A DNA stretch of 64,000 nt from Chrysomallon squamiferum (Eukaryota; Animalia; Mollusca): positions 16,616,001 through 16,680,000 of the forward strand of contig CM022676.1 in assembly GCA_012295275.1 (NCBI GenBank), read 5' to 3'. The position numbers and the translations under genes are program-made. The notes beneath the pieces are model-generated. The model was not told the DNA's origin, searched no databases, and saw only the letters and a program-made list of their open reading frames with translations. Each line of letters begins with the position of its first letter. The first letter of the stretch is position 1. This document shows positions 882 through 47,090 of the stretch, piece by piece.

Positions 882-1703
882 GTAATTTGTTTATTATATT
901 TGTATTTATTTATTTTTGTTATTTAATGAAATAAAATTCAAAAGTATTTTTACAGACATAGTAGATTCAGATATACTCACAACCAGAAGATAACGAATTG
1001 TTGTTCAAATACATTACACGCGAAATTCCTCTCGATGGAATTTTTCACATTTCAAATATGTTTGTAGGAAATAATGATAATTATAGTAGCTGTAGTATTA
1101 GTAGTAGTATTAGTAGTAGAAGTAGTAGTAGTAGTAGTAGTAGAAGAAGTAGTAGTAGTAGTAAATGTATATAATGCTGCTAAGTATATTTACACTATAT
1201 TAATGGTATTACTGTATCAAACATTGTCCATTAAAATTGTTTCGAAATAATTTAGAAAATAAGTATATTCTTCCGAAAACCTTAGAAATAAACGCACGTC
1301 TACAGAATACTTTTCCAAGAAATTTTTCATAATATTTATTTTATTCATTGTATTTACTTATTATACAAAAATAATAATAATAAGAAGACGAAGAAGAAGA
1401 AAGAAGAAGAAGAAGAAGAAGAAGAAGAAGAAGAAAAGGAAAAGATGAAGAAAACAAGAAGAATAAAGAAAAACACAAAAAATAGCAGTAATGATGATAA
1501 ACGATCGCATTTCATTTAGGATATTTAAACTATCTTTTTCAGTATCAACGCATTGTTTCATTAAACATTGTTGGAATCACATAGAAAGTAATAACTTTCT
1601 TCTCAAAACTTTGACACTAAAATGAGATGTGTTGAAGATGTTTAGTAAACCATGCTCTATAATACTCATTTCACTGTACATATTATTCATTTCTTTTTTG
1701 AAG

Positions 1704-1871
1704 GTTTAATGCAACATCATATCAAAGTGCTCACTTTGGACAAGGAACTGGACCAATATGGGTTGATGATCTGAGTTGTGATGGAGATGAAGACAGTGTT
1801 GAAAAGTGTTCATTTCGTGGCTGGGAAAACACAACTGTGTTCTGGGGAGGATGCTGGTATCAGCTGTCAAT
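1704..1871 (+). CDS. SRCR domain exon B (C-terminal half); 2 nt short, so frameshifted or an assembly error
   Basis: Reads [32 protein letters not shown]. It is 168 nt versus 170 nt for the intact copy at 49167-49336, and the frame is lost in the WGKHNCGH segment. Confidence 0.85.
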
Positions 1872-2685
1872 GTCAGTTTACATTTGACTTTTTATTTCAT
1901 TGTGTATCAATAACACAATGTTTTAACTTGCTGGCATCAAAATTATAATTCGTGTGTTTAATGGTGTTGTACTGAAGTGTGTATCTATCTTTATTTGCTT
2001 TTAGTAATAACTGAAACCAAAAAAATAATTAATAATATCAGGATTGGAAAAAGTAGTCAACTGAAAAGCTAGGTTTAAAAATAACCCTGAATTCATATGA
2101 GATATATTAATGTTGCAGTTATTCGTTATTAGTTACTTTTCTTGTTTGTTTGCTTGTTGTTGTTTATTGGTTTCCTTGTTTGACTGTTTGATTATTTGTA
2201 ATTCATGTAAGACTTAGCATAGGCATCAAAGCTAAACATATACCATTAAGCTGCTTATAACAGAGGAAACTCATCAGTGAACGTTTACAGATTATTCTTG
2301 TTGACTGGCGTATAAATAGGAAAATAAAGTTGGTAAGGGACGAAACAGCTTATATGAAATTTTCAGAAGAAATATATTATTAATCAATTACTAAATCGAT
2401 TTTCCTCAAAAGAAGAAATAAACATGAGAGTTACTGAAAATAACATCAGAAAAAACTTAATAATAAATAATAATAATAATAATGATAATAATAATGATAA
2501 TAATAATAATAATAACAATAATAATAATAATAATAATAATGGTCTTTAATAATTTTAAACACTAGCCTTCCTTCAGAAATGTAATGAAATTTGAAGAAAT
2601 CCACTATCGTAATGGTATTGTAAAATAGCATATGTAAACTGAACGTAAGTTTGGAATTTTATAGTATTTTGTTTATGTTTTTCAG

Positions 2686-2767
2686 TATGTCTCAGGGCTA
2701 GTCAATAGTGGAGGTATTTCAACACAGGGTCGAGTTCAGTTCAAACTTAACGATATATGTGGCACTA
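2686..2767 (+). pseudogene. Truncated relic of SRCR exon A
   Basis: ttcag acceptor followed by [23 protein letters not shown]-like sequence, which then runs into intron-type sequence. The same relic is at ~48281-48361 on the minus strand. Confidence 0.7.
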
Positions 2768-3400
2768 ATAAAGCTAAACTTAAATATTTGACACATTAAA
2801 ACTTTTAATTAATGCACTGATAAAGATTAATTGTCTGGTTCTGTTAATCATAATAATTGTCAATTATGCATAATATTTATAAAAAAAAAATAAAATAAAA
2901 AACGACTGTTAGTTCTATCAAAATAAAAGATCATGTCACTACTTTCTATGCTGATTACATTTAAAAGTAGAAAATACCTAATTTAAAAGAAAATGAATTA
3001 TTTCTTCAAAACGATTTATACTGTGTGTGTTCATTCAAAAGTACTAATAAAGTCAAACTTAAATCTTAGACCACTTTGAATTATCTGATCATATTTCAAC
3101 ATAACAATTTGCCAAATATGTACCGTATTACAATAATAAAAGCAGATTGTTATTTCTGAAAAAAATAAGCTTTACCACTATTTTCTATTCTGACTTTAGA
3201 TTTGCTAAATTAAAAATACTGAGAAAAACAGAGAAACATATGTATTTTAAAACGAGATCTTAGGCGTAAAGTGGTATGCAGTGGTGGAAGAAATTAAATA
3301 TTTTTGGAAAATGGAATAATAAACATCGGTGTGAATTATTATTTAATTAATTATATATTAACCATGGCTGTGTCAGTTCATATTGAAACCTTTCAGTATT

Positions 3401-3470
<70 letters not shown>

Positions 3471-3646
3471 TATTCTGTTTTCATTAAAATAACTATAATC
3501 AAAATCCTTGTTAATCATACAGATGTTCGATGTTGGTATTTATAACAGCGCCAAAGATATGACGGTGTCTGTATTATTCTTTTTTTTCTGAATAATTAGG
3601 CACTATTATAAATGACTGATCATATATAAACCTGTTATTATTTCAG

Positions 3647-3791
3647 TACCAGTAAGGTTAGTGAATGGAAGAGGAATACCAGCACAAGGACGAGTTGAGA
3701 TTCAAGTAAACGGGACGTGGGGAACAATCTGTGATGATGATTTTGATGAGAAAGATGCTTCTGTTTTATGTCACATGTTAGGATTTAGTCA
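3647..3791 (+). CDS. SRCR domain exon A, second copy in contig 1
   Basis: 145 nt AG..GT exon encoding [47 protein letters not shown] (overlaps ORF 3661..3945). Confidence 0.92.
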
Positions 3792-4166
3792 GTATCTATT
3801 TATTGCATTTTGTATTTATTTATTTTTTTTGTTGTTTTATAGACGTAGTAGATTCAATTTTACTCACACAAACATAAAGATAATTAATTGTTCTTCAAAC
3901 ATATTATACAATGAAATTCCTCTTGATGGATGTTCAACATTTTAAATATGTTTGTAAGAAATAATGATATTTGTAGTAGTTGTAGTATTAGTATGCATTA
4001 CTAGTAGTAGTAGTAAAATGTATTATAGTTTTCTTTGATTATATTTACACTTATATTAATGGTATTATTATATATCAAACGTCAGGCATTAAATTTGTTT
4101 AGAAATAAATTCTATAAAATAAAATATATTCTTCCGAAAACCTTAGAACTAAATGCACGTCTGTTG

Positions 4167-4366
4167 NNNNNNNNNNNNNNNNNNNNNNNNNNNNNNNNNN
4201 NNNNNNNNNNNNNNNNNNNNNNNNNNNNNNNNNNNNNNNNNNNNNNNNNNNNNNNNNNNNNNNNNNNNNNNNNNNNNNNNNNNNNNNNNNNNNNNNNNNN
4301 NNNNNNNNNNNNNNNNNNNNNNNNNNNNNNNNNNNNNNNNNNNNNNNNNNNNNNNNNNNNNNNNNN
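4167..4366. other. Assembly gap (200 N)
   Basis: Fixed-length N run typical of scaffolding joins. Confidence 0.99.
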
Positions 4367-4624: not shown

Positions 4625-6496
4625 CTGCTCAGTAAGGCTCAAGGTTTGTGGTCAGGTAAGATTCTGGAAGGCACCGTCTCACTTGACAGCTCAGTAGGAA
4701 AAAGTTCACAGTTTTTGATGACGTATCAGAAATCTAAGCCCAGTGTGGAATTAATCTCACCGTCAGGTCGCCTCTATAACAAACTTTACCCCGGTATATT
4801 CTTGTGACGATGACTTGAAACTTGTGAGAATAGAAATACCAGGTATAGCAGAGGTAAGAAATACAGACAGATATAATCAGCAGTAGAAGTATCAATGTCG
4901 TCATCAGTACTCTGATTGCTATCACTCATCTCGATAATTAAGAGTACTCATAAAATACAATTTTGATATTTCGACAACAACAACCCCATACTACATCTAT
5001 TACTAGTAATGTTATTGTAATAATAATAATAATAATAATAAACATAATCAGAATCAGGATAATAATAACGACTTGAGAAAAGTTAAAATAAATATTAAAT
5101 TTAGAATTATTAATAATAAAGTTATGTTTTAAAACATATTTTCGTGTGTGCATGTGTGCGTTTTTTCTATTTGCGATATGTATATCTCAATATATTACCA
5201 TTCGTGAATGTTGATTACATAACGCATTGTGTCCTCTTTTCCCAGGAAGGTGTATGGAAATTTCGAATCACGAACAGAGACAAGAATTTTCAGAAGGTGT
5301 GTCTCCTGGTAACGTCAAAAGCAGTGAATCCCCAGTTGTCTTCAATACGCGTAGAAGCAGCCGTGTCGCCTGTCAATGTCACGTGGCCACCGGAAGTGAT
5401 CGTGTACGCGGAAGTGACGCAAAACGGCCATCCTGTGACTGGACTGAGTGTGACCGCTGTTATAGACAGACCGTTTGCTGACCCTTGTGAAATGTCGCTG
5501 TTTGACAACGGAGCAGGTTGCAGCAGCAGTTTTTAAATTAATTAACTTCTATAAGTTGACGTCATTCACTTTGCTTCTTTTTCCTCTTCTTCTTTTTCTA
5601 GTAGTTAACACAGTCTATTAAGGTAAAGTCAGTTGTCGTTATAGTAAACAGAGTAAATACAGAAATTTCAATTATTGTTCTTCTTATTATTATTACTACT
5701 TTATACTTTTAATTTTACTTTTATTTGGTCGAATTGATTTTTTATTATATATATACATGTTTTAATTCATGTGCGGACATTACTAAAGACGATGGAGTGT
5801 ATTCACGATATTTCACGAATTACACCGGAAACGGCCGATACAGCGTCCGAATCGAAGTGACTGGTCAAGGTGTAGTTAAGCGATACAGAAATTTAGTGAA
5901 CAGTGCCTCATCTAACACATTTAACAGAAGTAAATTTATTTATTTATTTGTTTATTCATTTATCTATCTATTTTATCCTAATTCTGTCTATTTTTGCTGT
6001 CTTCTGCAAACTAACATATGTGATTATTTGAAGAGATTAACGAATTAACCAAAATGTTTGAGTATTAACATATTATAAAAGCATCTTAATTTTATGTTAC
6101 TGTTATGTAATACAAACAGCTGCCAGCTGCAACTACTACAGCTTATTTTGCTACTATTAATAATGTTAATATTACTACTTCTACAGCTCCTAACTCCATC
6201 CTAACTACTAACTCTACCATGATTAATTAAAACCTTAAAACATTAACTGCTGTTTACACTATTCACACATTTAACACACAAAACTGTGTCGTGAAGCGGT
6301 ACAAAACTTTGATAATAATTTTAACAAAAGTAAATTTATTAACTTATCGATTTAACTATTTTATCTTTTTTTTCGTCTATTTTTGTTAAATAAAGTAAAA
6401 AAAGAAAACTACTACTACTACAACTTCTACTACTACTACTACTATTACTACTACTACTACTATCACTACAACTACTACTAATACTAATACTACCAC

Positions 6497-6547
<51 letters not shown>

Positions 6548-6711
6548 TAACTGAATTGTGTCCTCTTTACTTGAACAGATGTTGTTTACTTTATATTGTG
6601 AATAAAACTTACATTTTATCGCTCAATCAGTAACGAAATAATACTCAAGGAAAATGCAATATTATTTAATTTTTTATTTTGGTCATTTCCGATATATTCA
6701 TTTGGTCACAT

Positions 6712-6742
<31 letters not shown>

Positions 6743-7512
6743 CACACACACATTTTTAATACCATGATTAATTAAAACTTTAAAACATTAAGTGCTGTTT
6801 ACACTATTCACACATTTAACACATAAAACTGTTTAATTCTTCATGTACAACTTACACAGAATCTTTCACGTGGACACCTTTGACTTCTGCAATAAACCGG
6901 GTTGTCACAGGAGGCGTGTTTGAATTTCGACACCCCAACGTGAGCGGGTCACTGCAGCCTTTCAGTGACCAGCTTCTCCTGCTTGACCAGCTCTCCCCTG
7001 GTCGAATCACGGACCTCAAGGTGATGAAAACACGTCACAAAGACAACACAGTGCTGTTGTCGTGGACGGCGCCTGGGGACGACTTTGATGCTAACACTGG
7101 TAAGAGCAACACACGTACACTATGTGTCTGTGTGTGTGTGTCTGTGTGTGTATGTCTGTGTGTCTGTGTGTGTATGACTGTGTGTCTGAGAGACAGAAAG
7201 AGAGAAAGTGCAAGTGAGACAGTGGAACACTCAGGGAAGGGGAATGTTTGAGTCTCAGATCGACCCAATTAGCGCGGTCGAATTTCACATTTCTACATAC
7301 AATTTTTCCTGATATATTATTTTAGTTCTTTCTTTCTTTGTGTCTCTCTTTCTCTGTATCTCTCTATCTTTCTTTCTCTTTCTCTGTGTCTCTCTCTGCC
7401 TCTCTTTGTCTCTGTCTCTTGTCTCTCTCTGCCTCTCTTTGTCTCTGTCTCTCTCTTTCTCTAACTCTTTCACGTATTCACACTGATACAGCAACTCAGA
7501 ATGAAATAATGA

Positions 7513-7606
<94 letters not shown>

Positions 7607-8097
7607 GTATTCACTCTGTTACAGCAACTCAGTATGAAATAATGACCGCGCCCACTGCAGATGATCTTCTGTCGAGACGCTCCAGCTGTAAATTTATTAG
7701 GCAGGATGACGTCACAGCAGGAAACCTGCGTTCACCTCAACCTGCAGGATCCATCGAAATGTTTGCGCTTAAAATGAAACGAGGCAAAAACGCCAACGCT
7801 AGTTTTGTTTTCACCATCCGTGCCTTAGACGACGTGGGCCACGTTGGTGACTTCTCAAACTTCGCCACGGCGGGTTTCGGTTTCGTTCCTGATTACGTGG
7901 ACCCGGCATACTCGGAAATAGTTCAACATCCGGTAGCGCAGGAAGCGACGCTTTCCAACAGTGAGAAGATTGTAATAGCGTCTGTCGTTGGTTCTTTCAC
8001 AGTCTTGCTGGCTCTTGTTATAATTGTTTCTTTCTTTCTCTACATTTGTTCTCGAAAATCATCAGAGTCACTCAGTGACAAAAGCCTTGCAGTTTAA
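4625..8097 (+). CDS. CLCA: Calcium-activated chloride channel regulator (CLCA) family, last five exons: 4625-4853, 5246-5516, 5771-5929, 6860-7099, 7625-8097
   Basis: CLCA motifs: GTVSLDSSVGK...IPGIAE|EGVWK, IVYAEVTQNGHPVTG, LFDNGAG|ADITKDDGVYSRYFT, PGRITDL, LSWTAPGDDFD, an FN3 domain with F.IRALDD.G...DFSN, and a C-terminal TM (IVIASVVGSFTVLLALVIIVSFFLYIC). AATAAA repeats follow the stop. Two lesions: one extra base near 4790 and a CAT instead of CAG acceptor at 5768-5770. The 5' exons are absent after the gap. Confidence 0.9.
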
Positions 8098-8606: not shown

Positions 8607-9806
8607 TCACGTAAACCCAGCAAACATTTGAAAATTGTAGTTAGAGTTTATCAGATCAGTTAGCACTTTGTTTTCAGAGTTTGCCCACATCGGGGGTCGA
8701 ACCGCCGACCAGCTGGTCCTTCCAGAATTTCTACAGTTAGTATTCCACCTCTTCTGTGAACCGTGGACTATTTCTTGTTTTCCTTTCACAATCGAGAAAT
8801 CTGGAGGAAGTTCTGGGCATCTATAGTAGACTGAGTCAACGGGATAAACGTATTCTTCACTAACATTTAACGTAACAGGGCGGAATTTTCTTTCGGAGGT
8901 AGAATTTAAATGTTTCGGTCCTGTTTTACGAATAACACACTTGTCCGAGTGCAATGTAGAAACAGCCGGTTCTAAATTTATCCTTGAAGTATCAGAAGAG
9001 AGGGAACTGCTAGAAGTAAATTCATCAAATCCGCTAGAAAAAGATGACAAACTAGAATGTCGTCTTACGTTTTGTAGTTTAGTTCTGTCTGTTGCATCTG
9101 TAGTACTGGTTCGCTGTGAACTGCGGTTAGATTTACACACAAAGAATGTATCAGATTTTAATACAGCAGGGGTAGATAACTCTGAGAGATTGTTACTGCT
9201 AAATTCATTCTCGAAAGTGTTTACTTTGTTACGAAGTGGAAATATCATTGACTTCTGGGATTCATTTGCATCTTGTCTGAAAGACTTTCTCAGTGATCGT
9301 TTCTTACACCAGGCGGCGTTGTAGAATTGAGTTTTTCTAGAGCTATAGCTTCCGCTTTCTTTCGACGATCCAGACACGAGAAATTTTGACAACTCCCCGG
9401 CTCCACTGAGATCAAACTCGTACCACGGTTCATCGTAATCTTCATCACTGAGACACGGAGTTCTCTCCCTTCTCAACACTGTAGGAATGTTCTGCCGTCC
9501 ATCTTGACTTCCTTGTATTTGTTCTCGTTGTTTTATATTTGTACATTTTTCTTCAAGTGGGCGTCTGTCTTTTAATATTTGGTTTTGCCTTTTCCCCACT
9601 TTTTTGACTTTGCACAAATTCTCTTTATTTGCACTGGGTAGCAAATCTTCATCTGTGACGTCATCGATTACGTCATATATATGATAAGGATCTTCTTCCA
9701 GGATGCTGGGAATTAGATCAGCAGTCTTTAGAATTTCTTTCGATTTCGATTTTTTGACATTTTTTCGTTTCTTCATCCATCGCCACATTCTGTTTCGGTA
9801 TTTCTG
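8607..9806 (-). CDS. Uncharacterised Ser/Lys-rich, probably disordered protein with several Tyr motifs (single large terminal exon)
   Basis: About 400 open codons in otherwise stop-rich DNA. ttcttttcag acceptor at 9807-9816 and AATAAA on the minus strand near 8510. Motifs HIYDVI, EDYDEPW and EYVYP. A possible upstream exon (MAATILRSKHFK, ~11735-11770) has only a weak donor. Confidence 0.75.
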   Translation of the reverse strand, partial: QKYRNRMWRWMKKRKNVKKSKSKEILKTADLIPSILEEDPYHIYDVIDDVTDEDLLPSANKENLCKVKKVGKRQNQILKDRRPLEEKCTNIKQREQIQGSQDGRQNIPTVLRRERTPCLSDEDYDEPWYEFDLSGAGELSKFLVSGSSKESGSYSSRKTQFYNAAWCKKRSLRKSFRQDANESQKSMIFPLRNKVNTFENEFSSNNLSELSTPAVLKSDTFFVCKSNRSSQRTSTTDATDRTKLQNVRRHSSLSSFSSGFDEFTSSSSLSSDTSRINLEPAVSTLHSDKCVIRKTGPKHLNSTSERKFRPVTLNVSEEYVYPVDSVYYRCPELPPDFSIVKGKQEIVHGSQKRWNTNCRNSGRTSWSAVRPPMWANSENKVLTDLINSNYNFQMFAGFT

Positions 9807-9955
9807 CTGAAAAGAAGAAAATGTAATGTATACAAAATCTTTATATTGCAATTAATGATAGTAATAACAAGGACAACAACACCTGTAAAATAAAAAAAAA
9901 ATAAAAAAAATAATAAAAAAATAATATAAATAAAAAAATAATATAAATAACTAAA

Positions 9956-13329: not shown

Positions 13330-14559
13330 AAGTTAAATTTTCGAACCAGTGTAAAGTTAAACACAAATTTCTCTCTATCTTCTCAGTCACGTGATACACA
13401 CCAAAGTCTTTCTCTTGCACAGACTTTAAATCGTATTTTCCTACAGCAGTCGCTTCAGTTTGTGAGTCTAGTCCACCAGAACCAACAACTGTCATCCTTC
13501 CGTCCGTCTGTCTGAACCAAGTGAACGTAGGAACTGGGTTGTCATTTCCTGGTATTGTAAGTGTGACGTCATCGCCTTTAGATGGAGCAAATCTTCTCTG
13601 ATAATCGGTTCGAATATCAAGTCTTGGCGAACCCGAGACATGTAAAATTTACTTTTTCATTTAACTTGGTAAAAGTAGATTACATTCTGTCAATACCCAA
13701 AAGCTGTAAAAAAATATAATTTAACTTTATTTTATTTTATATTTTAACAAAAATATATTCTGCATATAAATACCTAATTCAGACTGCACTCTTATTAATA
13801 TGTTAGATCTGTATATTTGTCTATGTGTTTGTCACTAAGTAAGTGTTTCGTGATTTCCACATGAGACTGTATTGATTACTGGCAACATCACATCTGACAG
13901 TAAGGGGAGATAATTCTTCAAGCTCTACCTTCCCATTCGCCGTGGCTAACTTGATGCTTGGCTCATCTGAAATAAGAAATTGACTCATTTCATTTCGTTC
14001 GTTTCCTTTCGTATCGTTTATTTATTTTTTTTTTTTTTTACTTATTTATTATTATTACTTATTTATTATTATTTTTTTATTATTATCTTTTATCGCAGCT
14101 ATTATTTCTAGTACCGCTGCTACTACTACTAGTACTACTACTTCTGCTAGTGCATCTTCTACTCCTTCTATTCCTCTTACTACTATAACTATAACTATTA
14201 CTACTCCTACATCTACTACTACCACTGTTACTGCAAATATTGCTACCGTTACTGCTACTAATATTACTACTACTGCTGCTACTGCTACTACTGCTGTTGC
14301 AACTGCTACTATTACGCATACTGTTACTCATACTCTGCTAGTGTCGCTAGCAGTAATACTTCTATTGTTACTACTGCTACAACTACCCCTGCTGTCGCCG
14401 CTGCAGCTGCTAATACTATCACTACTACTGCTGTCACTATTTCGTCTGCATATTAACACAAATAAGCAGAATGAACGAACAAATATTAAAACAGAAAATA
14501 AATAATTAAAAATAAAGGGAATACAAATTATAGTTTTTATAGTAGTAATAATAATGATG

Positions 14560-15300: not shown

Positions 15301-16321
15301 TTATTGAATTTACACGTGTCGAACTATTTAAAGTACTTATGTGTGTATGTCTGTGTGTTTGCGTGTGCCAAAATAATGGCAATAACCACATTAACTAGTA
15401 AAACGATATAAAAATATTAGCAGTAATTCTTCTTACAGCTAGATGATGATGATGATGATGAGGATAATGACGACGATAATGATAACAGTGATGATGACAA
15501 CGACGATTACGATGATGATACTTCTACTGCTACTACTACTACTAATAATAATAATAATAACAACAACAACAACAACAATAATAATTACATAAATTAGAAA
15601 TTGATGATGAAGAAAAATCACATTCCTGAGATACTTAAAAATGAACAGAGACTAAAAAAACACCATAGTTCACTACGTCCTAAGAGAAATAAAGTTAGTA
15701 GTTCTTCCTTGTTCTGTGTCCAACAACCCACTTATATGAAGCACTTTAAAAATAACAGCAAAATCTTTTGTGCGTGACTGGATCTGCCTGGCTAGATTTT
15801 TGATATCATTTGTGTACATAGACATATATCATCCTGAGCTGACCTTACATATATAAATATATAAATACATAAACAAATAAATAAACAAACAAACAAATAC
15901 ATAAATAAATAAATAAACAAATAAATAAGTAAATAAACAAATGAATAAATAATTAATTAAATACATAAATTAGTAAATAAATAAATAAATAAATTAGTAA
16001 ATAAATGAAGAGCCAGATAAATTAATATATATCTGCCTACCTGTTTTTAATAACAACACATACAACGGCATCTGTTTAAATCAAAACGTGAAACAATGAC
16101 GTAATGCATCCGTCTGTCCACACATCCAGCTTTCCACACATAAACATGTTTTACTGAAATCTCTTGTACAGCAACTAAACATAGACATGCATTCTTATTA
16201 CATATTTCTATTATCAACATATTTTAATTTAGTTTTGCATGTGTGTGTGTGTGTGTATATATATATATTCTATCCATAGTAGGACTCATTTTAGCAGTAA
16301 TAGTTGTTGTTGCTATAGCAT

Positions 16322-16544
16322 TCTAGAACTACAGCTTCCATTTTCTTTCGAAGTTCCAGACACGAGAAATTTTGACAAGTTCCCGGCTCCACTGAGATCA
16401 AACTCGTACCACGGTTCATCGTAATCGTCATCACTGAAACACGGAGTTCTCTCCCTTATCCACACTGTAAAAATATTCCGCCGTCCATCTTGATTTCCTT
16501 GTATTTGTTCGGGTTCTTTTATAGTTGTACATTTTTCTTCAAGT
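16322..16544 (-). pseudogene. Internal ~220 bp duplicate of the 8607-9806 ORF (matches ~9337-9558)
   Basis: Shared blocks include ccagacacgagaaattttgacaa and ccggctccactgagatcaaactcgtaccacggttcatcgtaatc. The DYDEPWYEFDLSGAG segment is retained. Confidence 0.9.
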
Positions 16545-16635: not shown

Positions 16636-16820
16636 TTCTCTTTTGTGAGCGGTGATAAGACTGAGGTGACTGGGTAAAAAAGGAACACGACACCGCACAG
16701 GGCGAGACAGTCGTCATTCGCTTCACTGAACACCTTCGAGGAAACAGCAAAACACTTGTGTGACTCGTGTTTCGTTATCTGTTACTGAAACAAGGGTGCG
16801 GGCTTCAGTGACAAACAAAA

Positions 16821-16893
16821 ATGAAATTTTCTGTTTTATTGAGTGTGGACTTTTTCTTATTAGGAATATTTTATCTGTCGAAATCTGTTACAG
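16821..16893 (+). CDS. Candidate signal-peptide first exon; no downstream exons identified
   Basis: aaaaATG then MKFSVLLSVDFFLLGIFYLSKSVT-G|gtaaga, phase 1 with a strong donor. Confidence 0.55.
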
Positions 16894-17749
16894 GTAAGAT
16901 TATTTTTAATTATTTATTTATAAAGTATTATCATCTGTTCATCGTTTCTTTCTCTTTTTCCCTATCTGTTTCTTCCTCTCTTACACTTTCTCTGTCTCTC
17001 TTGCATCATCTCTGAAGTTCAAACTCAGTTTTAGTTATACACAGAGACACACCCGGACAGAGAAATAGACAGACATACTTACATACAAGTATACCAGTCA
17101 GAAACAGTGAAACACAGATAAATACACGTAGAACATAGAGCAATATCCAGGCAATCATACACATGTAGAAAAACACACAGACAGATATACAATATATAGA
17201 TATACATTATATTAGTTTACATTATCTTGCATACATACATATATACAAAATACATACACATACTACGTACGTACTTACATGCATATAGTCATATCAAATG
17301 GATACAACACGTATAACTCATACACATTTCTTATGTTCTGTACTATTAGTGAAGACTTGCGCCATAAAATACCATTAGAAAAGTTAGTTCAACAAGCTGC
17401 ATAAAATTATTCACCATTATTTAGCATTTTATGATTCATAACTGTGATTTATTCTATCTATGACTGGTATCTCTGTCTCTGAAAATAAATATATCTGACA
17501 TGAGTATGTGAGTACGTGTATGTGAGTTTGAGTATCTGTCAGAGATGGTTTATAACTATGTGTTTATAGATGAGTTTATATCTGTGAGCAAGAAACAGAC
17601 ACAAAGACATATATAATATTAGATATTCTTTGTCATACGAGACCAAATTAAATAGCAAGTCTTAAACAAACGAAAGGTGTAAATAATTTCACCATAATCT
17701 CGTTATATTGTTATTATTATTATTATTATTTCAATTATTATTATAGTCG

Positions 17750-18850
17750 CGGGGTTCTCACCTTTACACACCTTTGATGTTTTATTAGGGCTTAGTCTAG
17801 TAAGCATTACGACCGGTAACGACCCATCTGTCTGAAACGACCAGCAGTATCGTGGTGTGAAGAAGTTTGCATCGGATATTCTTGCCCAGTATATCACGTT
17901 GAAAGTAGAGCATGAAGCGATTCAACAGCAACACCGAGAAAAAACACCAGAACCTTTGTCAGAGGATGAAATTATTGTAGATTCACCAAGGAAAATCCTT
18001 TGAACGAAAATTGACAGCTCGATATGCACAAAAAGTGATCAACGCTATCACTAGAGAAGAGAAGAGAAAAGTCGTGTAAGCTGCCGAACGAGAGGAAGCT
18101 AAAAAAATAAAAGTAAGTTCTAAAGGCATGAACATGATAGAAATAGCTAGTAGATTATTAGTTGTTAGTGTGGCAACAACCAGAGAACAATTACTTACTT
18201 GGGTTAGAACTTACAAACAAGAAGCAAATGCAATTTGTACAATACCTGGAGAAAATCAACCACTTGGTGGATTCACTTTTATCATGAGTGAGATTTCATT
18301 TTAGAGAGTTTTGAAGTCACAACTTGAAATTGTGAATTCTAAAGTAGATCCGAAAGTGTCCATTATTGACTATTTGAGAACATAGGAACCTCCAAATGAT
18401 TTAGATTTGGCTGAACCTGAAGAAAGCATGATGGATTTTTTATATTGGTGTTGTCATGCTCAAATTGTTGCACGAAAAATAGTATCCATTCTTCAAAAAA
18501 GTGATACTGACCGTTACTGTGTCTGCTTGCTTGGATAATCCACAACAGGTAAATCGTATTGGATGATTGAACCATTCACGATTTTACAATCATCTGTAGT
18601 TGGACGTGCACGTAAAGACGCTGATTTGGTTTCGAGTCCTGCGCGAACAAAAATATTATTCTTGTTGATGAATGTAACATTTATCAACCAGCTATGGACA
18701 CCAACAAATCTTTGTTATGAGGTAATAAGGTGGAAGTTGTAAGGAAACAACCTATGGTGATCCATAAAACTGTTAGTTTTGTGTCCAGAGATGAAAAACA
18801 AATGATTATAACACAATTTTATGATTTTGTATTATTATAGACACTGTGAT
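17750..18850 (+). mobile_element. Degraded endogenous viral element: parvovirus/densovirus-like NS1 with SF3 helicase domain
   Basis: Intronless frame with several stops and a frameshift. Walker A region CVCLLG*STTGKSYW (GxSTTGKS at ~18533-18556), then GFESCANKNIILVDEC (Walker B, DE at 18667-18672), then B' motif KSLL*GNKVEVVRK. Order and spacing fit SF3 helicases. Confidence 0.8.
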
Positions 18851-19202
18851 GTGGTTTACCAATTTCGGAGGACTGTTTTGTATTTTCTGCTTTTGCTTTA
18901 ATACAAATTAAAATAAGATAAAAACAAATTTATTATTATTTATTTTACGTTTCTAAAAGCAGTGCGTTTTCCAGTACCACTATTTGTACTAACTAGCCCT
19001 ACTATATCCAGTATTGCTATTATTACTAGCTCTACTTTTTCCATTACTATTATCACTTTTATTACTCGCCCTAATATTTCCAGTACTACTATTATTACTA
19101 ACTCTACTACTGTTGACATTTACCTAACTTACCTTGATATCCACCTGAACTTACCTTAATTACCGACATCATCTGAAATGAGAAATCAAATGCAAACTGT
19201 CA

Positions 19203-19276
19203 GAGCATACGAGGATTCGAACCCCAAGCAGCGAGCGTACCGAGCGTGAACGCTAATCACGACACCATCCGATCTC
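19203..19276 (-). other. Second, inverted tRNA-derived head
   Basis: Reverse-complement copy with a canonical B box GGTTCGAATCC at 19213-19223. Confidence 0.65.
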
Positions 19277-19693
19277 GGACGAGAAGCATGTGAAAAGAAC
19301 TTCTAGTCAATCCTGCGATCGATGTTGTGCAGTCGATTTTGGGTTATCTCCAAAGATGGCGATTATCTGCAGAAGCCGTCATTTTCATTTTATTTGATCT
19401 CACTATTTTAAATATAAATCCACACACTCGTTAATATTTAGCATAAAAAATAAAATATTTAATAAAATAAACATTTATATAAAATTAAAAAAATTGCATT
19501 AATAGTTTCTTAAAAAAAAATGATGTCATTATTCCCGGACGTTATATAACTCTTATAGTATTGCAGGATATTATGCAAATTCAGAAAATGGCGGCTTCTA
19601 CAAATAATCGCCATGTTGGGAGGTAACTCCAAATCGATTGCACAACATCGATCGCAGGACTGACTAGAAGTTCTTTTCATGTGGTGGTCGTCC

Positions 19694-19768
19694 GAGATCG
19701 GATGGTGTCGTGGTTAGAGTTCACGCTCGCTACGCTCGCTGCTTGGAGTTCAAATCCTTGCTCCGCTC
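19694..19768 (+). other. tRNA-derived (SINE-head-like) sequence with Pol III A/B boxes; not a canonical tRNA
   Basis: A-box-like tggtgtcgtggt at 19703-19714 and B-box-like gagttcaaatcc at 19746-19757. gag..gga / tccgctc gives acceptor-stem-like pairing. The anticodon arm is irregular. Confidence 0.65.
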
Positions 19769-19859: not shown

Positions 19860-21477
19860 CCCTGGAAATAGTAGGGCTAGTAATAGTAGTACTGGAAATA
19901 GAAGGGCTAATAATAATAATAGTAGTACTGGAAATAGAAGGGCTAATAATAATAATAGTAGTACTGGAAATAGTAATGGTAGTGCTAGAAATAGAAGGGC
20001 TAAATTTAATATGAGCACTGGAAACAGAAGGGTTAATAATTGTAGTAATGCTGGAAATAGTAGGGCTAGTAATAAGAGTAGTGCTGGAAATAGTTCGGTG
20101 CTGGAAATAATTGGGCTAATAATAGTAGTACTCGAAATAGTAATAATAGTGCTGGAAATAGAAGGGTTAGTAAAAATTGTAGTGCTGGAAAAAGAACGGC
20201 TAATAATAGAAGTAGTACTAGAAATGGAAGGTCTAATAATTATAGTAGTAGTACTGCAAATAGTAGGGCTAGTAATAATAGTAGTACTGCTGGAAATAGA
20301 AGGGCTAGTAATAATAGTAGTGCTGGAAATGATAGGCCTGATAATAGTTGTTCTGGAAATATTAGGGCTAGTAATAATAGTAGTGCTGGAAATAATAGGG
20401 CTAATAATAGTAGTAGTACTGGAAATAGAAGGGATAGTAGTCGTGCTGGGAATAGAATGGTTAGTAATAATTATAGTGCTGGAAATAGTAGTGGTAGTAA
20501 TAATAGTAGTACTTGAAATTGTAACAGTAGTGCTGGAAATAGTAGGGCTAGTAATAACAGTAGTGCTGTAAATAGAAGGGCTAGTAATAATAGGAGTGCT
20601 GGAAATAGACTGGCTAATAATAGTGGCAATGGTGGAAATAATAGGGCTAATAATTGTAGTAGTACTGGAAATAGAAGGCCTAATAATAGTAGTAATGCTG
20701 GAAATAGAAGTGTTAGTAATAATAGTAGTACTGGAAATAGTAGGGCTAATAATAATAGTAGTACTGGAAATAGTAGGGCTAATAATAATAGTAGTACTGG
20801 AAATAGTAGGGCTAATAATAGTAGTAGTACTGGAAATAGTAATAGTAGTGCTGGTAATAGAAGGGCTAGTAATAATAGTAGTGCTGGAAATAGTAGGGCT
20901 AATAATAGTAGTATTGCTGGAAATAGAAGGGATAGTAGCAGTTCTGGAAATAGAAGGGTTAGTAATAATAGTAGTAGTTCTGGAAATAGTAGTAGTAGTG
21001 CTGGAAATAGAAGTGCTAATAACAGAAGTAGTAATGGAAAGAGTAGAGTTAGTAATAATAGTAGTACTGGAAATAGTAGACCTAGTAATAATAATAGAAG
21101 TACTCCTTCGGAAATAGTAGGGCTAGTAATAATAGTAGTACTGGAAATAGTAGACCTAATAATAATAGAAGTACTCCTTCGGAAATAGTAGGGCTAGTAA
21201 TACTAGTAGTACTGGAAATAGTAGACCTAGTAATAATAATAGAAGTACTCTTTGGGAAATAGTAACATTAGAGCTGGAAATGGAAGGGTTACTAATAATA
21301 GTAGTAGTAATAGTAGAGCTAGTAATAATAGTAGTGCTCGAAGTAGTAGGAATATTAATAGTAGTACTGCTTTAGATATAGTAGGCTAATAATAGTGGAA
21401 CTGGAAATAGTCGGGCTACTAATAATTGTAGTAATGGAAACAGTAGGGCTAGTAATAGTAGTGCTGGAAATAGTAAA
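19860..21477 (+). repeat. Satellite array, ~30-36 bp unit (consensus ctggaaatagtagggctagtaataatagtagta)
   Basis: Dozens of ctggaaatag-anchored units. A short inverted array of the same unit is at ~18963-19110. Confidence 0.95.
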
Positions 21478-25437: not shown

Positions 25438-25803
25438 TCACGTAAATGACAGGGTTGGTTTCGGATTTTTGCCCGAGCTCTTGTTCCGGACCGTAATTTT
25501 CCAGTCACCAATCTTCCCCGTGTGTCCACGCAGACCGTTCTTACCGCTGATTGTCCTGCTACCCTCCACTTTTAGTTTACTGTAGTCACTGAAAGCGGCA
25601 GAGTAACCACCTTTAAAATATAATAAAACAACAACAGAAACAAATATTAAGAGAAAATCCAAATGTATCTGCATGTCTCTATGTGTGTTTGTTCGTGTAT
25701 GTGCATATTTTTGTGTGTTAAAATCACTTTTTAAACCGCAATTAAAATTTGAAATATAAACACTCTAAATTTAACATATATAATCCGGATATATAAGAGG
25801 AAC

Positions 25804-26804: not shown

Positions 26805-27551
26805 CGAAGGTAGATAACCACGTCTATACTTAACGTAAATCACATTATCTATAACACTGTGTTTGATTTGACACATTTCTTTTACGTATATTAACTCTAG
26901 ATATTTTATTAACTTTCTAATTTATGTAAATCAAGTTAATATATTAATATAAATTTAAGTGACACACACAAACACACACACACACACACACACACACATA
27001 TGTATAGGTGTGTCTGTGAGTGTATCTATGTTTGTGTCTCTCTTGTTATTCAAAAAGTGCCTTTAAAAGTTCGTAAGTGCGTACTTTTCTGTAAATATAT
27101 TTTTGTGTATGTTTGCTTGTGTGTATGTGTGCGTGTGTATGTATCTATATGTTTCTGTATGTATCCATGTATATGTATGTGTATGTATGCATGTTTCCAC
27201 TCGCATATATACATACATAAACATGCATACATCTGTCAATATAATAATGAAGGATGAACAAAAAGTAAGCGGTTTCTTGTTTCTTTGTTTCAGTGTTCTA
27301 TTAAGGAGTTTTAGTTACTTCACAAAATAAAGTTATACTGAAACGTGTAAACCCTAACTGAAGCGTCAAAACATGAATTTAAACTGGAAGAAAGAAAACA
27401 TCTTGTACACCAAAAGACAATGTGAAACATGAAACATAACGGGAAAGAGGAGGAAATGTAAAATGAAACAAGTGAAATAAATAAATTGAGTAGTCAGAAG
27501 ATAAACTGAAACATGAAAAGATAAGCAAACACGTGAGATAACAAAAACATA

Positions 27552-29272
27552 ATGTGTTCAAAATACGGAGGAGTAAATGATTCTTACCTGGAGGACATAC
27601 TGGAGAAGGATGAAGAAACATTGCAGTTTGAACTGAATAAACTGAAGGATGATGATGAAGAACTGCTGTTTGATCTTAAAACATTGAACGAGAAGAATGC
27701 TGAAGCACTGCTAATTGAACTGAAGGATCGACAAAAACAGTTTTTCAGACTTCTCACTCAAAGAAGACTTTCGTCGAGTGATGTGTGTTTGATAACAAAA
27801 TTACTAGCAAAGTCGTGCAGCTGCGAAGTACACACAGAACAAGTATTCAACCTTCTACTGGATGTCGAGAGATCGCTGTTTTTAGAACGCACGGTTCCGC
27901 CACTGTTGAGGGAGATATCTGCTGATTGTTCAGTAGCTGCTGAGAAAATGTCTCTTCCATTTGTAGCCGATGTCCTTGACCTGCTTGTACAGTTATCACT
28001 GCGGCTGCCTCATACCATCGTTGAGGTTGCAGGAGTTAACTTGTAGATTACGCTGTGGCCAGTTTAAGAAAACGTGGGTTGTCTGTCCCTGAGACGATAG
28101 ACATGAAAACAAAACAACTCTTAGAACTGAAAACGTCAATGACGAAAAAGGCTCAAAGTGACAGACTAACAGCAGCAAAGAAACCGTCACTTCCGAATGA
28201 CTTCAGAAGAATTTCAGTGATGCCAACGTAGGATGACATTTATCGCACAAACGCGCCCTTCCTTCGCAGGATGAAGGAAAGAGGTGCGTACTACGATCTC
28301 GACGACTACCTCGATGTACAGTTCAGACTGTTGAGGGAAGATGTCATTCAGCCGCTGTAAGAAGCTATTCATGAATATGTGTCGTTTGACAACCATCCAG
28401 AAAACAATGTTTCTCTTCGCACGTATAAAGGTGTTAAAATACTAAATTCAGATTTCAAAAATGCAAAGTTCGTGCATACTGTGACATTTGACACAAGGAA
28501 ACTGAAAGACATCCAGTGGGAGTACACGAAACGACTGAAATATGGTTATCTGGTGTATCTGTCGAGCAACGGTTTCAAAACGTTTACCATTGCAACTATT
28601 GAATCGGGGCCTGCAAAGGATGACAACGGTGTAGTCACAGTTGAGATTTTTGAAGAACATGTTGTAGGCAACACAGGAATCGATATGACGAAGCCGATGG
28701 TGATGTTGGAAACACCGGCTTACTTTGAAGCGTATCGCTACGTCTTGTCGTCTCTGCAGAATATTAACAAGCTTCCGTTCGATGAATACATTGTACACTG
28801 TACAACTGAAGTGAAACAGCCAGCCTACCTGAGAGGCAAAGCAAATGTCCACTATCAATTCCAGAACAAGACTAAGACAACTCAGGCTACAAAAAAGAGA
28901 AATATGATTAAAATTTCGTCCAGGATACCTCTGACTACCCGACGACAAGTATTTTCAGGTATTTTCAGTGAAGAAGCAGACGATGAGGATGAGAGCCACA
29001 ATGGCGTTCCTGTTCTGAATCTGAACAAGTGGCCCCAGCCAGAGACTCTGAAACTGGAGGCCGCTCAGTTCAAGGCGTTTCAACAAGCCCTGACCAAAGA
29101 ATTTGTCATCATTCAGGGACCTCCAGGAACGGGAAAAACATACATAGGACTAAAAATAATAGAAACTTTATTAAGAAACAGAGACATCTGCGAACGAGAC
29201 AGAGACATCTGGGAAGGAGACAGAGGAATCCCCATTTCAGTTCTGTGTTATACGAATCACGCCTTAGACCAA
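27552..29272 (+). pseudogene. ZNFX1: ZNFX1-like (NFX1-type zinc finger-containing protein 1) SF1 helicase, disrupted and truncated after motif Ia
   Basis: Hallmarks PNDFRRISVMPT*DDI...PFLR...GAYYDLDDYLDVQFRLLREDVIQPL*, KRLKYG.LVYLS, ETPAYFEAYRYVL, LPFDEYIV, IQGPPGTGKTYIGLKI and VLCYTNHALDQ. Frameshift near 28040; in-frame TAG at 28229-28231 and TAA at 28358-28360. No further helicase motifs follow. Confidence 0.9.
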
Positions 29273-29399
29273 ATACGAGCAGAATTGCGACAGACAGAGA
29301 TACCAACAACAGGACATCGGACAGATATACTAAGAAAAGGGCGTGACACAGATATACTTAAAGAAGAGCTTCAAACAGATATACAAAAGAAAGAGCATC

Positions 29400-32300
29400 G
29401 AAGAGAGATGCTAACAATAGGGCGGCAGACAAAGCTACAGACAGTAGGACATCAGACACAGCCAAATCTACTGACAGTAGGGCATGAGACGAAGCTCCTA
29501 GTAGAAAGGCATCAGACAAAGCTACTAACAAAAGTGTGTCACACAAAGCTACTGACAGTAGGGCATCAGACAAAGCCAAAGCTACTGATAGTAGAGCATG
29601 AGACGAAGCTCCTAGCAGAAAGGCATCAGACAAAGCTACTAACAGAAGGGTGTCACACAAAGCTACTGACAGCAGGGCACCAGACAAAGCTAATGACAGT
29701 AGCCATCAGATGAAGCTACTAACAGCCGTCAGATGAATCTACTGACAGTAGGGCGGTAGACCAAGTTACTGACAGTAGGGCGGTAGACAAAGTTACTGAC
29801 AGTAGGGCGGTAGACAAAGTTACTGACAGTAGGGCGGCAGACAAAGCTAATGACAGTACAGAGGCAGACAAACATACTGACACTAGGGCGGTAGACAAAT
29901 ATACTGACAGTAGGGAGGTAGACAAACCTACTGACAGTAGGCATCAGTCGAAGTTACTAACAGTAGGGCGGCAGACAAAGCTACTGACAGTAGGGTGGCA
30001 GACAAAGCTACTGACAGTAGGGCGGCAGACAAAGCTACTGACAGTAGGGCGGCAGACAAAGCTACTGACAGTAGGGCGGCAGACAAAGCTACTGACAGTA
30101 GGGCGGCAGACAAAGTTACTGACAGTAGGGCGGCAGACAAAGTTACTGACAGTAGGGCATCAGACAAATATACTGACAGTAGGGCGGCAGACAAAGCTAC
30201 GGACAGTAGGACATCAGACAAACCTACTGACAGTAGGGAGGCAGACAAAGCTACTGACAGTAGGACATCAGACAAAGCTACTAACAGTAGGACATCAGGC
30301 AAACCTACTGACAGTAGGACATCAGACAAAGCCAAAGCTACTGATAGTAGAGCATGAGACGAAGCTCCTAGCAGAAAGGCATCAGACAAAGCTACTAACA
30401 GAAGGGTGTCACACAAAGCTACTGACAGCAGGGCACCAGACAAAGCTAATGACAGTAGCCATCAGATGAAGCTACTAACAGCCGTCAGATGAATCTACTG
30501 ACAGTAGGGCGGTAGACCAAGTTACTGACTGTAGGGCGGTAGACAAAGTTACTGACAGTAGGGCGGTAGACAAAGTTACTGACAGTAGGGCGGCAGACAA
30601 AGCTAATGACAGTACAGAGGCAGACAAACATACTGACACTAGGGCGGTAGACAAACATACTGACAGTAGGGAGGTAGACAAACCTACTGACAGTAGGCAT
30701 CAGTCGAAGTTACTAACAGTAGGGCGGCAGACAAAGCTACTGACAGTAGGGTGGCAGACAAAGCTACTGACAGTAGGGCGGCAGACAAAGCTACTGACAG
30801 TAGGGCGGCAGACAAAGCTACTGACAGTAGGGCGGCAGACAAAGCTACTGACAGTAGGGCGGCAGACAAAGTTACTGACAGTAGGGCGGCAGACAAAGTT
30901 ACTGACAGTAGGGCATCAGACAAATATACTGACAGTAGGACATCAGACAAACCTACTGACAGTAGGGAGGCAGACAAAGCTACTGACAGTAGGACATCAG
31001 ACAAAGCTACTAACAGTAGGACATCAGGCAAACCTACTGACAGTAGGACATCAGACAAAGCCAAAGCTACTGATAGTAGAGCATGAGACGAAGCTCCCAG
31101 CAGAAAGGCATCAGACAAAGCTACTAACAGAAGGGTGTCACACAAAGCTACTGACAGCAGGGCACCAGACAAAGCTAATGACAGTAGCCATCAGATGAAG
31201 CTACTAACAGCCGTCAGATGAATCTACTGACAGTAGGGCGGTAGACCAAACCTGACTGTAGGGCGGTAGACAAAGTTACTGACAGTAGGGCGGTAGACAA
31301 AGTTACTGACAGTAGGGCGGCAGACAAAGCTAATGACAGTACAGAGGCAGACAAACATACTGACACTAGGGCGGTAGACAAACATACTGACAGTAGGGAG
31401 GTAGACAAACCTACTGACAGTAGGCATCAGTCGAAGTTACTAACAGTAGGGCGGCAGACAAAGCTACTGACAGTAGGGTGGCAGACAAAGCTACTGACAG
31501 TAGGGCGGAGACAAAGCTACTGACAGTAGGGCGGCAGACAAAGCTACTGACAGTAGGGCGGCAGACAAAGCTACTGACAGTAGGGCGGCAGACAAAGTTA
31601 CTGACAGTAGGGCGGCAGACAAAGTTACTGACAGTAGGGCATCAGACAAATATACTGACAGTAGGGCGGCAGACAAAGCTACGGACAGTAGGACATCAGA
31701 CAAATATACTGACAGTAGGGCGGCAGACAAAGCTACGGACAGTAGGACATCAGACAAACCTACTGACAGTAGGGAGGCAGACAAAGCTACTGACAGTAGG
31801 ACATCAGACAAAGCTACTAACAGTAGGACATCAGGCAAACCTACTGACAGTAGGACATCAGACAAACCTTCTGACAGTAGGGCGGCAGAAAAAAGCTACT
31901 GACAGTAGGGTATCAGAAAAACCTACTAACATTAGGGCATTAGAGAAACCTACTCACAGTAGGGCATCAGACAAACTTACTGACAGTAGGGCGGCAGACA
32001 AACCTACTGACAGTAGGGCGGCAGAAAAAAGCTACTGACAGTAGGGTATCAGAAAAACCTACTAACATTAGGGCATTAGAGAAACCTACTCACAGTAGGG
32101 CATCAGACAAACTTACTGACAGTAGGGCGGCATACAAACCTACTGACAGTAGGGCATCAGACAAAGATACTAACGGTAGGACGGCAGACAAAGCTACTGA
32201 CAGTAAGGCATCAGACAAATATACTAACAGTAGGACGGCAGACAAAGCTACGGACAGTAGGACATCAGACAAACCTACTGACAGTAGGGAGGCAGACAAA

Positions 32301-34090
32301 GCTACTGACAGTAGGACATCAGACAAAGCTACTAACAGTAGGGCATCAGATGAAGCTACTGACAGTAGGACATCAGATGAAGCTACTGACAATAGGACAT
32401 CAGCCAAACCTAGTAACAGTAGGGCGGCAGACAAAGCTACTGACAGTAGGGCATGAGACAAAGATACTGACAGTAGGGCGGCAGACAAAGCTACTGACAG
32501 TAGGGCGGCAGACAAAGCTACTGACAGTAGGGCGGCAGACAAAGTTACTGACAGTAGGGCATCAGACAAATATACTGACAGTAGGGCGGCAGACAAAGCT
32601 ACGGACAGTAGGACATCAGACAAAGCTACTAACAGTAGGACATCAGGCAAACCTACTGACAGTAGGACATCAGGCAAACCTACTGACAGTAGGGCGGCAG
32701 AAAAAAGCTACTGACAGTAGGGTATCAGAAAAACCTACTAACATTAGGGCATTAGAGAAACCTACTCACAGTAGGGCATCAGACAAACTTACTGACAGTA
32801 GGGCGGCAGACAAACCTACTGACAGTAGGGCATCAGACAAAGATACTAACGGTAGGACGGCAGACAAAGCTACTGACAGTAGGGCATCAGAGAAACCTAC
32901 TAACAGTAGGGCATCAGATGAAGCTACTGACAGTAGGACATCAGATGAAGCTACTGACAGTAGGACATCAGCCAAACCTAGTAACAGTAGGGCGGCAGAC
33001 AAAGCTACTGACAGTAGGGCATCAGACAAAGATACTAACAGTAGGGCATCAGATGAAGCTACTGACAGCAGGACATCAGATGAAGCTACTGACAGTAGGA
33101 CATCAGCCAAACCTAGTAACAGTAGGGCGGCAGACAAAGCTACTGACAGTAGGGCATCAGACAAAGATACTAACAGTAGGGCATCAGATGAAGTTACTGA
33201 CAGTAGGACATCAGACAAACCTACTGACAGTAGGACATCAGACAAAGCTACTGACAGTAGGACATGAGACAAACCTACTGATAGTAGGACATCAGACAAA
33301 GCTAATGACAGTAGGGCGGCAGACAAAGCTGCTGAGAGTAGGGCGGCAGACAAAACTACTGACAGTAGGGCGGCAGACAAAGCTACTGACAGTAGGACAT
33401 CAGACAAAGCTGCTAACAGTAGGGCGGAAGACAAAGCTACTAACAGTAGGACATCAGACAAAGCTACTAATAGTAGGGCATCAGACAAAGCTGCTAACAG
33501 TAGGGCGGAAGACAAAGATACTGACAGTAGGACATCAGACAAAGCTACTAAGAGTAGGGCGGCAGACAAAGCTACTGACTGTATGACATGAGACAAAGCT
33601 ACTAACAGTAGGGCGGCAGACAAAGCTACTGACAGTAGGGCGGCAGATGAAGCTACTGACAGTAGGACATCAGACAAAGCTACTAACAGTAGGGCATCAG
33701 ATGAAGCTACTGACAGAAGGACATCAGGTGAAGCTACTGACAGTAGGACATCAGAAAAACCTACTAACAGTAGGGCGGCAGAGAAACCTACTAACAGTAG
33801 GGCGGCGGATGAAGCTACTGACAGTAGGACATCAGACAAAGCTACTAACAGTAGGGCATCAGATGAAGGTACTGGCAGTAGGACATCAGACAAACCTACT
33901 AACTGTAGGGCGGCAGACAAAGCTACTGACAGTATGACATCAGACAAAGATACTAACAGTAGGGCATCAGATGAAGCTACTAACAGTAGGACATCAGACA
34001 AACCTACTGACATTAGGGCGGCAGAGAAAGGTACGTCAGCGAGCGATACCAACAGAAGAGAATCAGACAGAGATACTAACAGTAAACCGT
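29400..34090 (+). repeat. 27-bp minisatellite (gctactgacagtagggcggcagacaaa) with higher-order repeats
   Basis: 9-codon unit (KATDSRAAD, TKLLTVGRQ, or antisense LLSVALSAA). The variant block agccatcagatgaagctactaacagccg recurs at 29701, 30457 and 31186, giving periods of 756 and 729 bp. Units degenerate at both edges. Confidence 0.97.
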
Positions 34091-34099
34091 CGGATAGAG

Positions 34100-34760
34100 A
34101 GGCATCCAAAGTGGAGGCTGAAATCACACTTTCAGATATTCAGATGGAAAAATTACACGTAACACGTTCAGGCACCCATTACACAAGAACGGAAAAAAAG
34201 AAGTATATTTGCACAACAAATCAAAACAACAATAATCCCTCAAATAATTCCAAAGCATACAGAGAAAAAGATTTTACATAAGCAAATACGGAGAAAGATC
34301 ATCTCAGAGGAAAATCCGTGAGCGATTATCCAGGAGCAGATAAAGACAGACATAATCCTAAAACAAAGAGAGACGAGTATTTTCAGAATACAAATAAAGA
34401 GAAAAATTATCCCAGAGAAATTAAAACGAGGGATTATCCTAGAGCAAAATTTCACAGCGATTACCGAGGAGAAAAGAGATTAAATAATTATCCCATAGGA
34501 ACTAAAGCCAAGGATTATATTATACCAAAAACTTGCACCTATTATCGAGGAGGAGAGAAATTGAATGATCATCCGAAAATTACATCAGAACTGGATTATC
34601 GAGTAACCAACACAAACAGGGATTATATCCAGGGAAACTCAGACAGTATCTCCAGACTCGATTCGCCTGATACAGACTACACTGTGACGGGAAAATGAAA
34701 AGAAGCATTTAACAGTGGCAGAAGAAGTAGTCACCAAACGAGTAGAGAAAAATAAAGAAG
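34100..34760 (+). pseudogene. Low-complexity coding-like tail with ~10-aa D/N-Y-P/R periodicity, in frame with the KATDSRAAD reading
   Basis: ORFs 33934..34281 and 34318..34698 share a frame, separated by one stop. Recurrent motifs SDYP, KNYP, RDYP, SDYR, NNYP, KDYI, LDYR and RDYI. Confidence 0.5.
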
Positions 34761-35164
34761 AAAGAAAACAAGTAATCACTATGATCAATTTGTTTTAATG
34801 TTTTCAAACGTACACGTATACGTATTATATATAAAGACACAGACATACAACCACACACAAATTACAAATAAATATAATATAATCGTAAAACTGGTACACA
34901 CAATCACCACAAATACAGGCTCACATATATCATAATTTACTTTGTGGTTCTCAATCAGTCAGAGTAAAAATTAATTTAAGTTGTTGGTTTTTGTTGGTTT
35001 TTATTATTATTTTACAGAGTTGTTCAAAGTAAACATTTTATAAGAAAAAACAAAAATCTCTTCCTCGCCAGTTTGTGCTTAAAAGAGTCACACAACAACT
35101 GCAGAGAAGATTCAGACGAGTATGCTGATAAAGACGGTGACGATGATGCTGATTATCTTGCTGC

Positions 35165-45782: not shown

Positions 45783-45817
<35 letters not shown>

Positions 45818-46981: not shown

Positions 46982-47024
<43 letters not shown>

Positions 47025-47059
47025 GGTTTTTATATTTATTTTCTAATATTCTTCTTCTT

Positions 47060-47090
<31 letters not shown>

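Follow-up and report, generated by a model that had tools for sequence, protein, structure and literature searches.

A decayed parvovirus-like NS1 fragment, probably of germline origin, in the genome of the mollusc Chrysomallon squamiferum

Parvovirus-related sequences have been described in six molluscs, cephalopods included, where they branch outside the known genera (Francois et al. 2016, PMC5013282, as far as its available portion goes), and the list includes entries for Octopus bimaculoides, Sepia, and Euprymna. The combination of an HUH domain and an SF3 helicase is given as the hallmark of NS1 in the accessible part of PMC13426907, which also states that bidnaviruses have a parvovirus-type SF3 helicase and are frequently mislabelled as parvoviruses. 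For parvovirus genera, a threshold of 35–40% NS1 identity is stated in the excerpt of PMC11357303. Because invertebrates, molluscs among them, are already known to carry parvovirus-like fragments, the base finding reported here is modest. A literature search limited to non-subscription journals found no paper on this particular element. What is new beyond the initial annotation of this DNA comprises four sequencing runs with versions 89–93% alike (flank included), three stops that these versions do not share, an 11-nt repeat, and a signal-peptide-like exon.

Structure of the decayed reading

The element lies in a window of 64,000 nucleotides, the whole stretch of DNA that was analyzed. The features of the locus are as follows.

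16821–16893, + strand: putative host first exon, with a signal-peptide-like 24-mer, phase 1, and the strong donor CAG/GTAAGA
16894–17746, + strand: host-type, microsatellite-rich, intron-like flank, of which diverged versions exist (sequence and contigs)
17706–17744, no strand: (TAT)13 microsatellite at the left junction (repeat scan)
17736–17746, + strand: left copy of an 11-nt direct repeat, with a terminal AG that could serve as a splice acceptor; candidate target-site duplication
17747–18280, + strand: decayed upstream reading, in one frame to ~17990 and then in another, open beyond chance
18281–18750, + strand: SF3 helicase core, parvovirus NS1-like, with pre-Walker-A helices, Walker A with a stop, a frame change, Walker B, and B′
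18751–18840, + strand: degenerate motif C region and tail, ending at the stop at 18838 (profile and motif comparison)
18830–18840, + strand: right copy of the 11-nt direct repeat (word search)
18907–18912, + strand: ATTAAA, a possible polyadenylation signal, a motif common in such AT-rich DNA

The decayed reading at 17747–18840 (+) spans ~360 codons, is interrupted by six stops, and changes frame twice. The upstream stretch 17749–18000, with a stop at 17833, is in the same frame as the Walker B/B′ piece. The frame at ~17981–18627 contains stops at 18077, 18302, 18383, and 18536, the last of which lies inside Walker A. Walker B and B′ are in a different frame, at 18628–18837, with a stop at 18718, and the downstream frame change is located at ~18625–18628, between Walker A and Walker B. 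The initial annotation had read through the stops from 18128. The peptides that it quoted are present in the window, and its observation is confirmed; the second elided part of the quotation spans the frame change at ~18625–18628, with Walker B and B′ in another frame. The element had also been called invisible in the ORF track, and indeed no ORF of at least 100 aa overlaps 17750–18850.

With at most two frame changes allowed, 17747–18837 can be read with a minimum of five stops. Dinucleotide shuffles need 14.0 on average, and 0 of 500 were as low. The upstream part, 17747–18296, also has fewer stops than chance would give (as low a count in 7 of 500 shuffles), and the flanks at 16894–17746 and 18838–19390 are ordinary in stop count (103 and 75 of 500 shuffles as low, respectively). 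Likely, 17747–18280 is the N-terminal part of the same NS1-like gene; the upstream part 17747–18296 has no profile match in Pfam, the parvovirus N-terminal profiles, or PHROGs, and profile-supported homology is limited to ~18281–18750. The tail at 18781–18945 obtained no score against post-motif-C profiles, and its assignment past 18780 to the arginine-finger region was dropped as unproven. Within the 64-kb window, there is no second NS1-like copy, and no tRNA or Rfam family was detected at threshold.

Identity and viral affiliation of the helicase

The 71-codon second-frame piece carrying Walker B and B′ matches Pfam Parvo_NS1 at 21.7 bits (E 1.1e-4; curated cut-off 20), and this was the sole Pfam family matched at E up to 1. 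By itself, the Walker A piece shows a weak match to PPV_E1_C in Pfam (E 0.11). A profile built from 25 NS1 domains, for which 3 of 28 motif ORFs were excluded as non-NS1, gives the element 48.2 bits when it is read with X at the breaks; the best of 2000 shuffles reaches 6.6 bits, and the reversed read −1.9. Similarly, with the profile of all sampled parvoviruses (39 rows; best shuffle 4.8), the X-joined core reaches 50.6 bits, and it obtains 39.7, 30.0, and 23.1 bits against the Parvovirinae-like (24 rows), denso-like (11), and hama-like (4) subgroup profiles. The profiles of papillomavirus E1 (72 rows), circovirus/CRESS Rep (18), and D5 (2) give 16.6, 3.9, and −0.1 bits, and the best shuffles across the group profiles, from which unlabelled rows were omitted, give 4.8–9.4 bits. 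In pairwise comparison, the best single score belongs to papillomavirus E1, at 21.2 bits versus 21.1 for the top parvovirus, whereas median scores are higher for the parvoviruses (17.7 and 15.9) than for E1 (8.9). The references are natural SF3 genes taken by motif patterns from viral contigs that bear no taxon names, with groups assigned by motif. This panel is not neutral, because the patterns were built from parvovirus motifs; the Pfam scan is independent of the panel.

At the level of motifs, every one of the 14 aligned rows has the E, G, and K of Walker B/B′, and the spacing of motif B′ agrees with SF3. Motif C is degenerate in the window copy, and its B′-to-C spacing is two residues shorter than in 13 of 13 references. 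Collectively, these sequence comparisons show that the SF3 core resembles parvovirus NS1 more than it does E1, CRESS Rep, or D5. The initial annotation had assigned Walker A, B, and B′ to a parvo-like SF3 helicase and proposed a search against Parvo_NS1 (PF01057); the match above the cut-off and the advantage of the parvovirus profiles over E1, CRESS Rep, and D5 bear this assignment out. It had also named a best match to cellular or transposon ATPases, or the lack of a profile match, as contrary outcomes; for the Walker B/B′ piece, Pfam gave Parvo_NS1 only.

An SF3 phylogeny, likewise proposed there, places the read inside a 40-row parvovirus group in a 64-row tree with a support of 93/89 (not starred), on an end branch of 2.57, and the tree program warns of long branches meeting. 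The tree omits 61 of 71 E1 rows as well as the CRESS-other and D5 rows, and the references contain no bidnavirus NS1 and lack several parvovirus genera. The read belongs to none of the three sampled parvovirus subgroups, so the label of a densovirus in particular does not stand. Its identity to any parvovirus reference is at most 23% (115 columns, 39 parvovirus rows), short of the genus threshold for a sample from which several genera are absent. Membership in papillomavirus E1 or CRESS Rep is supported by neither profile nor tree.

Beyond the helicase, N-terminal nickase (HUH) profiles gave nothing above 2.0 bits; the region has decayed, and domains of this type diverge rapidly. Near 17890, a YxxxK-like word lies at a distance plausible for nickase motif III (174–219 residues in the references) and finds no profile support. 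Regarding a capsid (VP), 0 of 106 other ORFs from parvovirus loci match the window at E 0.01 or better. As for terminal hairpins, three end pieces fold like shuffles (z 0.99, 1.24, and −0.66), and none of the 25 longest of 249 inverted repeats flanks the segment. Since the evidence consists of SF3 with no nickase profile, capsid, or hairpin, we refer to an NS1-like fragment and do not file it under Parvoviridae.

Searches for homologous proteins with pieces of the NS1-like read were blank. In particular, phmmer with a 70-residue piece against 1.84 billion representatives returned 0 matches at E 0.001, viral contig and metagenome contig collections yielded no relative, single-sequence comparison with the PDB gave chance matches only, and PHROGs gave nothing better than E 0.14. 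These blank results are weak because the queries are short and broken. An unsampled viral lineage is plausible, as judged from these low-sensitivity searches and from a branch lengthened by decay.

Junctions, copies and genomic surroundings

The 11-nt word at the junctions occurs exactly twice in 64 kb (shuffle mean 0.28; 7 of 100 shuffles have two matches anywhere). A match as good as that at the left junction is found in 2 of 300 tiles, one of which, by coordinates, is the tile containing the right copy. The pattern points to a staggered break and the target-site duplication that would result from it; we treat this duplication as a candidate because the repeat was noticed post hoc, is AT-rich, and has low complexity. 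There is no poly(A) tail; therefore, classical LINE retroposition of an mRNA is unsupported.

The stretch 16650–18950 is present in nine sequencing runs from one organism and three studies; five of the nine contain at least half its words, and one of the nine may be the assembly source. Four runs were examined for contig pieces, which are short, with 32 of 1924 pieces and 40 of 245 differences displayed, and contig depth is not a copy number. Within single runs, window-identical pieces occur alongside pieces that are 89–93% alike, in the coding part as well as in the upstream flank and exon. At the right end of the element, contigs continue into host satellite. The left junction, where repeats were skipped, is spanned by none of the 32 pieces displayed of 1924, and no empty-site joint occurs among the displayed pieces. 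The proposal of a germline integration thus retains its host embedding, seen at the right junction in several samples, but loses the single locus, as several diverged versions exist. An endogenous viral element is indicated by viral homology above chance, by host embedding in more than one sample (right junction), and by decay through stops and frame changes. No RNA runs containing the stretch are listed, which has no bearing on expression. Moreover, one contig of one run joins 16921 to 18819 with 21 other letters between; it might represent a deleted copy, an insert-free copy, or a low-complexity artefact. We did not count it as a copy without the insert, both sides being AT-rich and the side lengths not given.

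Among the 40 displayed differences of 245, 12 lie in 17747–18840: three in stop codons, eight non-synonymous, and one synonymous, as expected for unconstrained decay of the window copy. Three or more differences in six stop codons have a binomial P of 0.0009, and three stops of the window copy are absent from the other versions. Contigs of all four runs are longer between B′ and C, by an in-frame amount. Of four displayed pieces crossing the downstream frame change, two do so without a gap; therefore, at least one diverged version has the same frame change. The divergence of the copies (89–93%) is comparable to that of duplicates within the window, which are 85–91% identical, with one at 96%. 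Because the window is full of local duplicates at 85–96%, the copies do not call for an amplification mechanism of their own. As a possible alternative to duplication, the versions may be deeply diverged alleles or stem from pooled individuals.

The window is intron-rich animal DNA with ~30% G+C, and its repeats are reminiscent of those in octopus genomes. Pfam identifies SRCR exons at 721–1884, 46359–49338, and 62922, minus-strand Ig and FN3 exons at 13331–13648 and 41374–45889, and a ZNFX1 helicase piece at 28361. With these neighbours, the description of the setting as an immune-gene cluster is fair; the position of the insert is not tied to function.

Several further observations concern these surroundings. 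A broken ZNFX1-like helicase gene at 27537–34900 (+; Pfam ZNFX1, E 2e-22) is interrupted by a 27-bp tandem array of ~171 copies (29414–34034), and a second ZNFX1-like piece at 55487–55911 (region 55473–55911) is 87% like 34419–34844. An SRCR exon cassette forms an inverted duplication (1–3797 and 47252–51035; 96% over 3.8 kb). After SRCR exons, the Ig and FN3 exons at 41363–45889 (−) are tandemly duplicated with 85–87% identity, and together with SRCR they possibly form one SRCR-Ig-FN3 receptor gene. At 8610–9851 (−), a 414-codon open frame with no Pfam match is perhaps a receptor cytoplasmic tail; a 224-nt piece of this frame is duplicated (91%) at 16321–16544, just left of the putative first exon. 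A 175-nt repeat has two inverted copies (19212–19386 and 19584–19758; 89% complementary), each adjoining a 33-bp satellite (18992–19109 and 19860–21475); it is a genome-wide repeat, SINE-like in appearance, given its very high depth in four runs. The exons at 5120–8094 (+) and 25441–25764 (−), which look CLCA-like, gave no match in Pfam or the PDB. Assembly gaps of 200 N each are located at 4167–4366 and 55912–56111.

Origin of the fragment and comparison with known systems

The reading that we favour, with a probability of approximately 0.78, is a broken parvovirus-like NS1 fragment in an animal chromosome, likely captured once in a germ cell, multiplied by segmental duplication that included the flank, and inert here. 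The fragment would derive from a divergent small DNA virus. At the end of the (TAT)n tract, approximately 1.1 kb of viral DNA may have been joined by ligation to the two sides of a staggered break, which would account for the 11-nt direct repeat. The frame would still have been mostly open at the time of segmental duplication with the host flank, and each duplicate would later have gained its own breaks. The window copy is unable to make a helicase because a stop interrupts its Walker A and Walker B lies in a different frame.

The donor might have been another SF3-coding small DNA virus, likeliest a bidnavirus or an unclassified relative, with a helicase descended from parvovirus NS1. An identity of at most 23% to all sampled parvoviruses is consistent with such a donor, bidnaviruses share this helicase and are often mislabelled (PMC13426907, accessible part), and no capsid or polymerase gene is present to decide. 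Nevertheless, the papillomavirus, circovirus/CRESS, and D5 profiles score far below the parvovirus profiles, albeit among references without bidnaviruses, and Pfam, up to an E of 1, matches the B/B′ piece to no SF3 family besides Parvo_NS1; we regard this donor as quite unlikely. The low pairwise scores (at most 21 bits) and the blank searches of large databases would also fit a degenerate P-loop ATPase from a cellular gene or a transposon, or else a contaminant in the assembly. Against this, the spacing of motif B′ is of the SF3 type, no AAA or transposase family is matched in Pfam, and the PDB matches are at chance level (E 0.24 or worse). Furthermore, the stretch occurs in several samples and runs on into host repeats, and a live contaminant virus is contradicted by the stops and frame changes. 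This explanation is largely refuted and highly improbable.

A different question is whether the fragment became part of a host gene. The putative exon at 16821–16893 is ATG-started and is the sole hydrophobic one of two matches in 64 kb to a pattern running from ATG to a strong donor in phase 1. Spliced to the AG at 17746, it would give a secreted or ER-targeted NS1-derived protein, of which the window would hold a dead paralogue, others maybe being under selection. The phase of the exon brings this acceptor into frame with the upstream NS1-like reading; diverged versions exist of the exon, the intron, and the NS1-like part alike; three stops are not in the other versions; and a precedent exists in enRep-Myo9 of guinea pigs (10.1101/572735, available part). 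However, the acceptor at 17746 is weak, with a pyrimidine share of 0.65 and no T/C tract, below most host acceptors inspected, and four further acceptors in 16894–19000 score equal or higher. The frame fit has a chance of one in three. Phase-1 signal exons normally open Ig/SRCR genes, and such genes fill the window. In addition, a secreted ATPase has no evident use, and at least one diverged version carries the downstream frame change (two of four displayed spanning pieces are gapless). Such splicing is unlikely. We judge as doubtful, to the same degree, its extension to a small duplicated fusion family in an innate-immunity cluster, with the NS1 of an undescribed lineage as second exon and intact transcribed members elsewhere.

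The element records a small-DNA-virus lineage without a close relative in the collections searched, from a host group whose viruses have probably been little sampled. Its duplicated copies and candidate target-site repeat would make the insertion datable by comparison of related genomes. If the upstream exon were spliced to the NS1 part, or if small RNAs were produced, the importance would be much greater.

Compared with the parvovirus NS1/Rep SF3 domain (PF01057; AAV Rep and NS1 structures), the order and spacing of Walker A, B, and B′ and the invariant E, G, and K are the same, whereas the window element has a broken Walker A, a degenerate motif C, a B′-to-C distance two residues short, and no detected HUH domain. 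In enRep-Myo9 (10.1101/572735, available part), a replicase fragment likewise lies beside host exons, but it is conserved, transcribed, and expressed, while the copy described here is broken and its splicing exists on paper only. The sequences of PMC5013282, as represented in its available portion, are likewise pieces of NS1/SF3 carried by animal genomes; many contain stops, and their branches are long and weakly supported. Two O. bimaculoides SF3 rows from that set match the window element, by eye, only in family motifs, and a duplicated flank, direct repeat, and upstream exon are not described in that portion. Finally, the IHHNV-derived elements of shrimp (PMC12287923, available part) match a circulating virus, some at 95–99%, in contrast to at most 23% for the window element; in both cases, an invertebrate genome carries several parvovirus-derived fragments.
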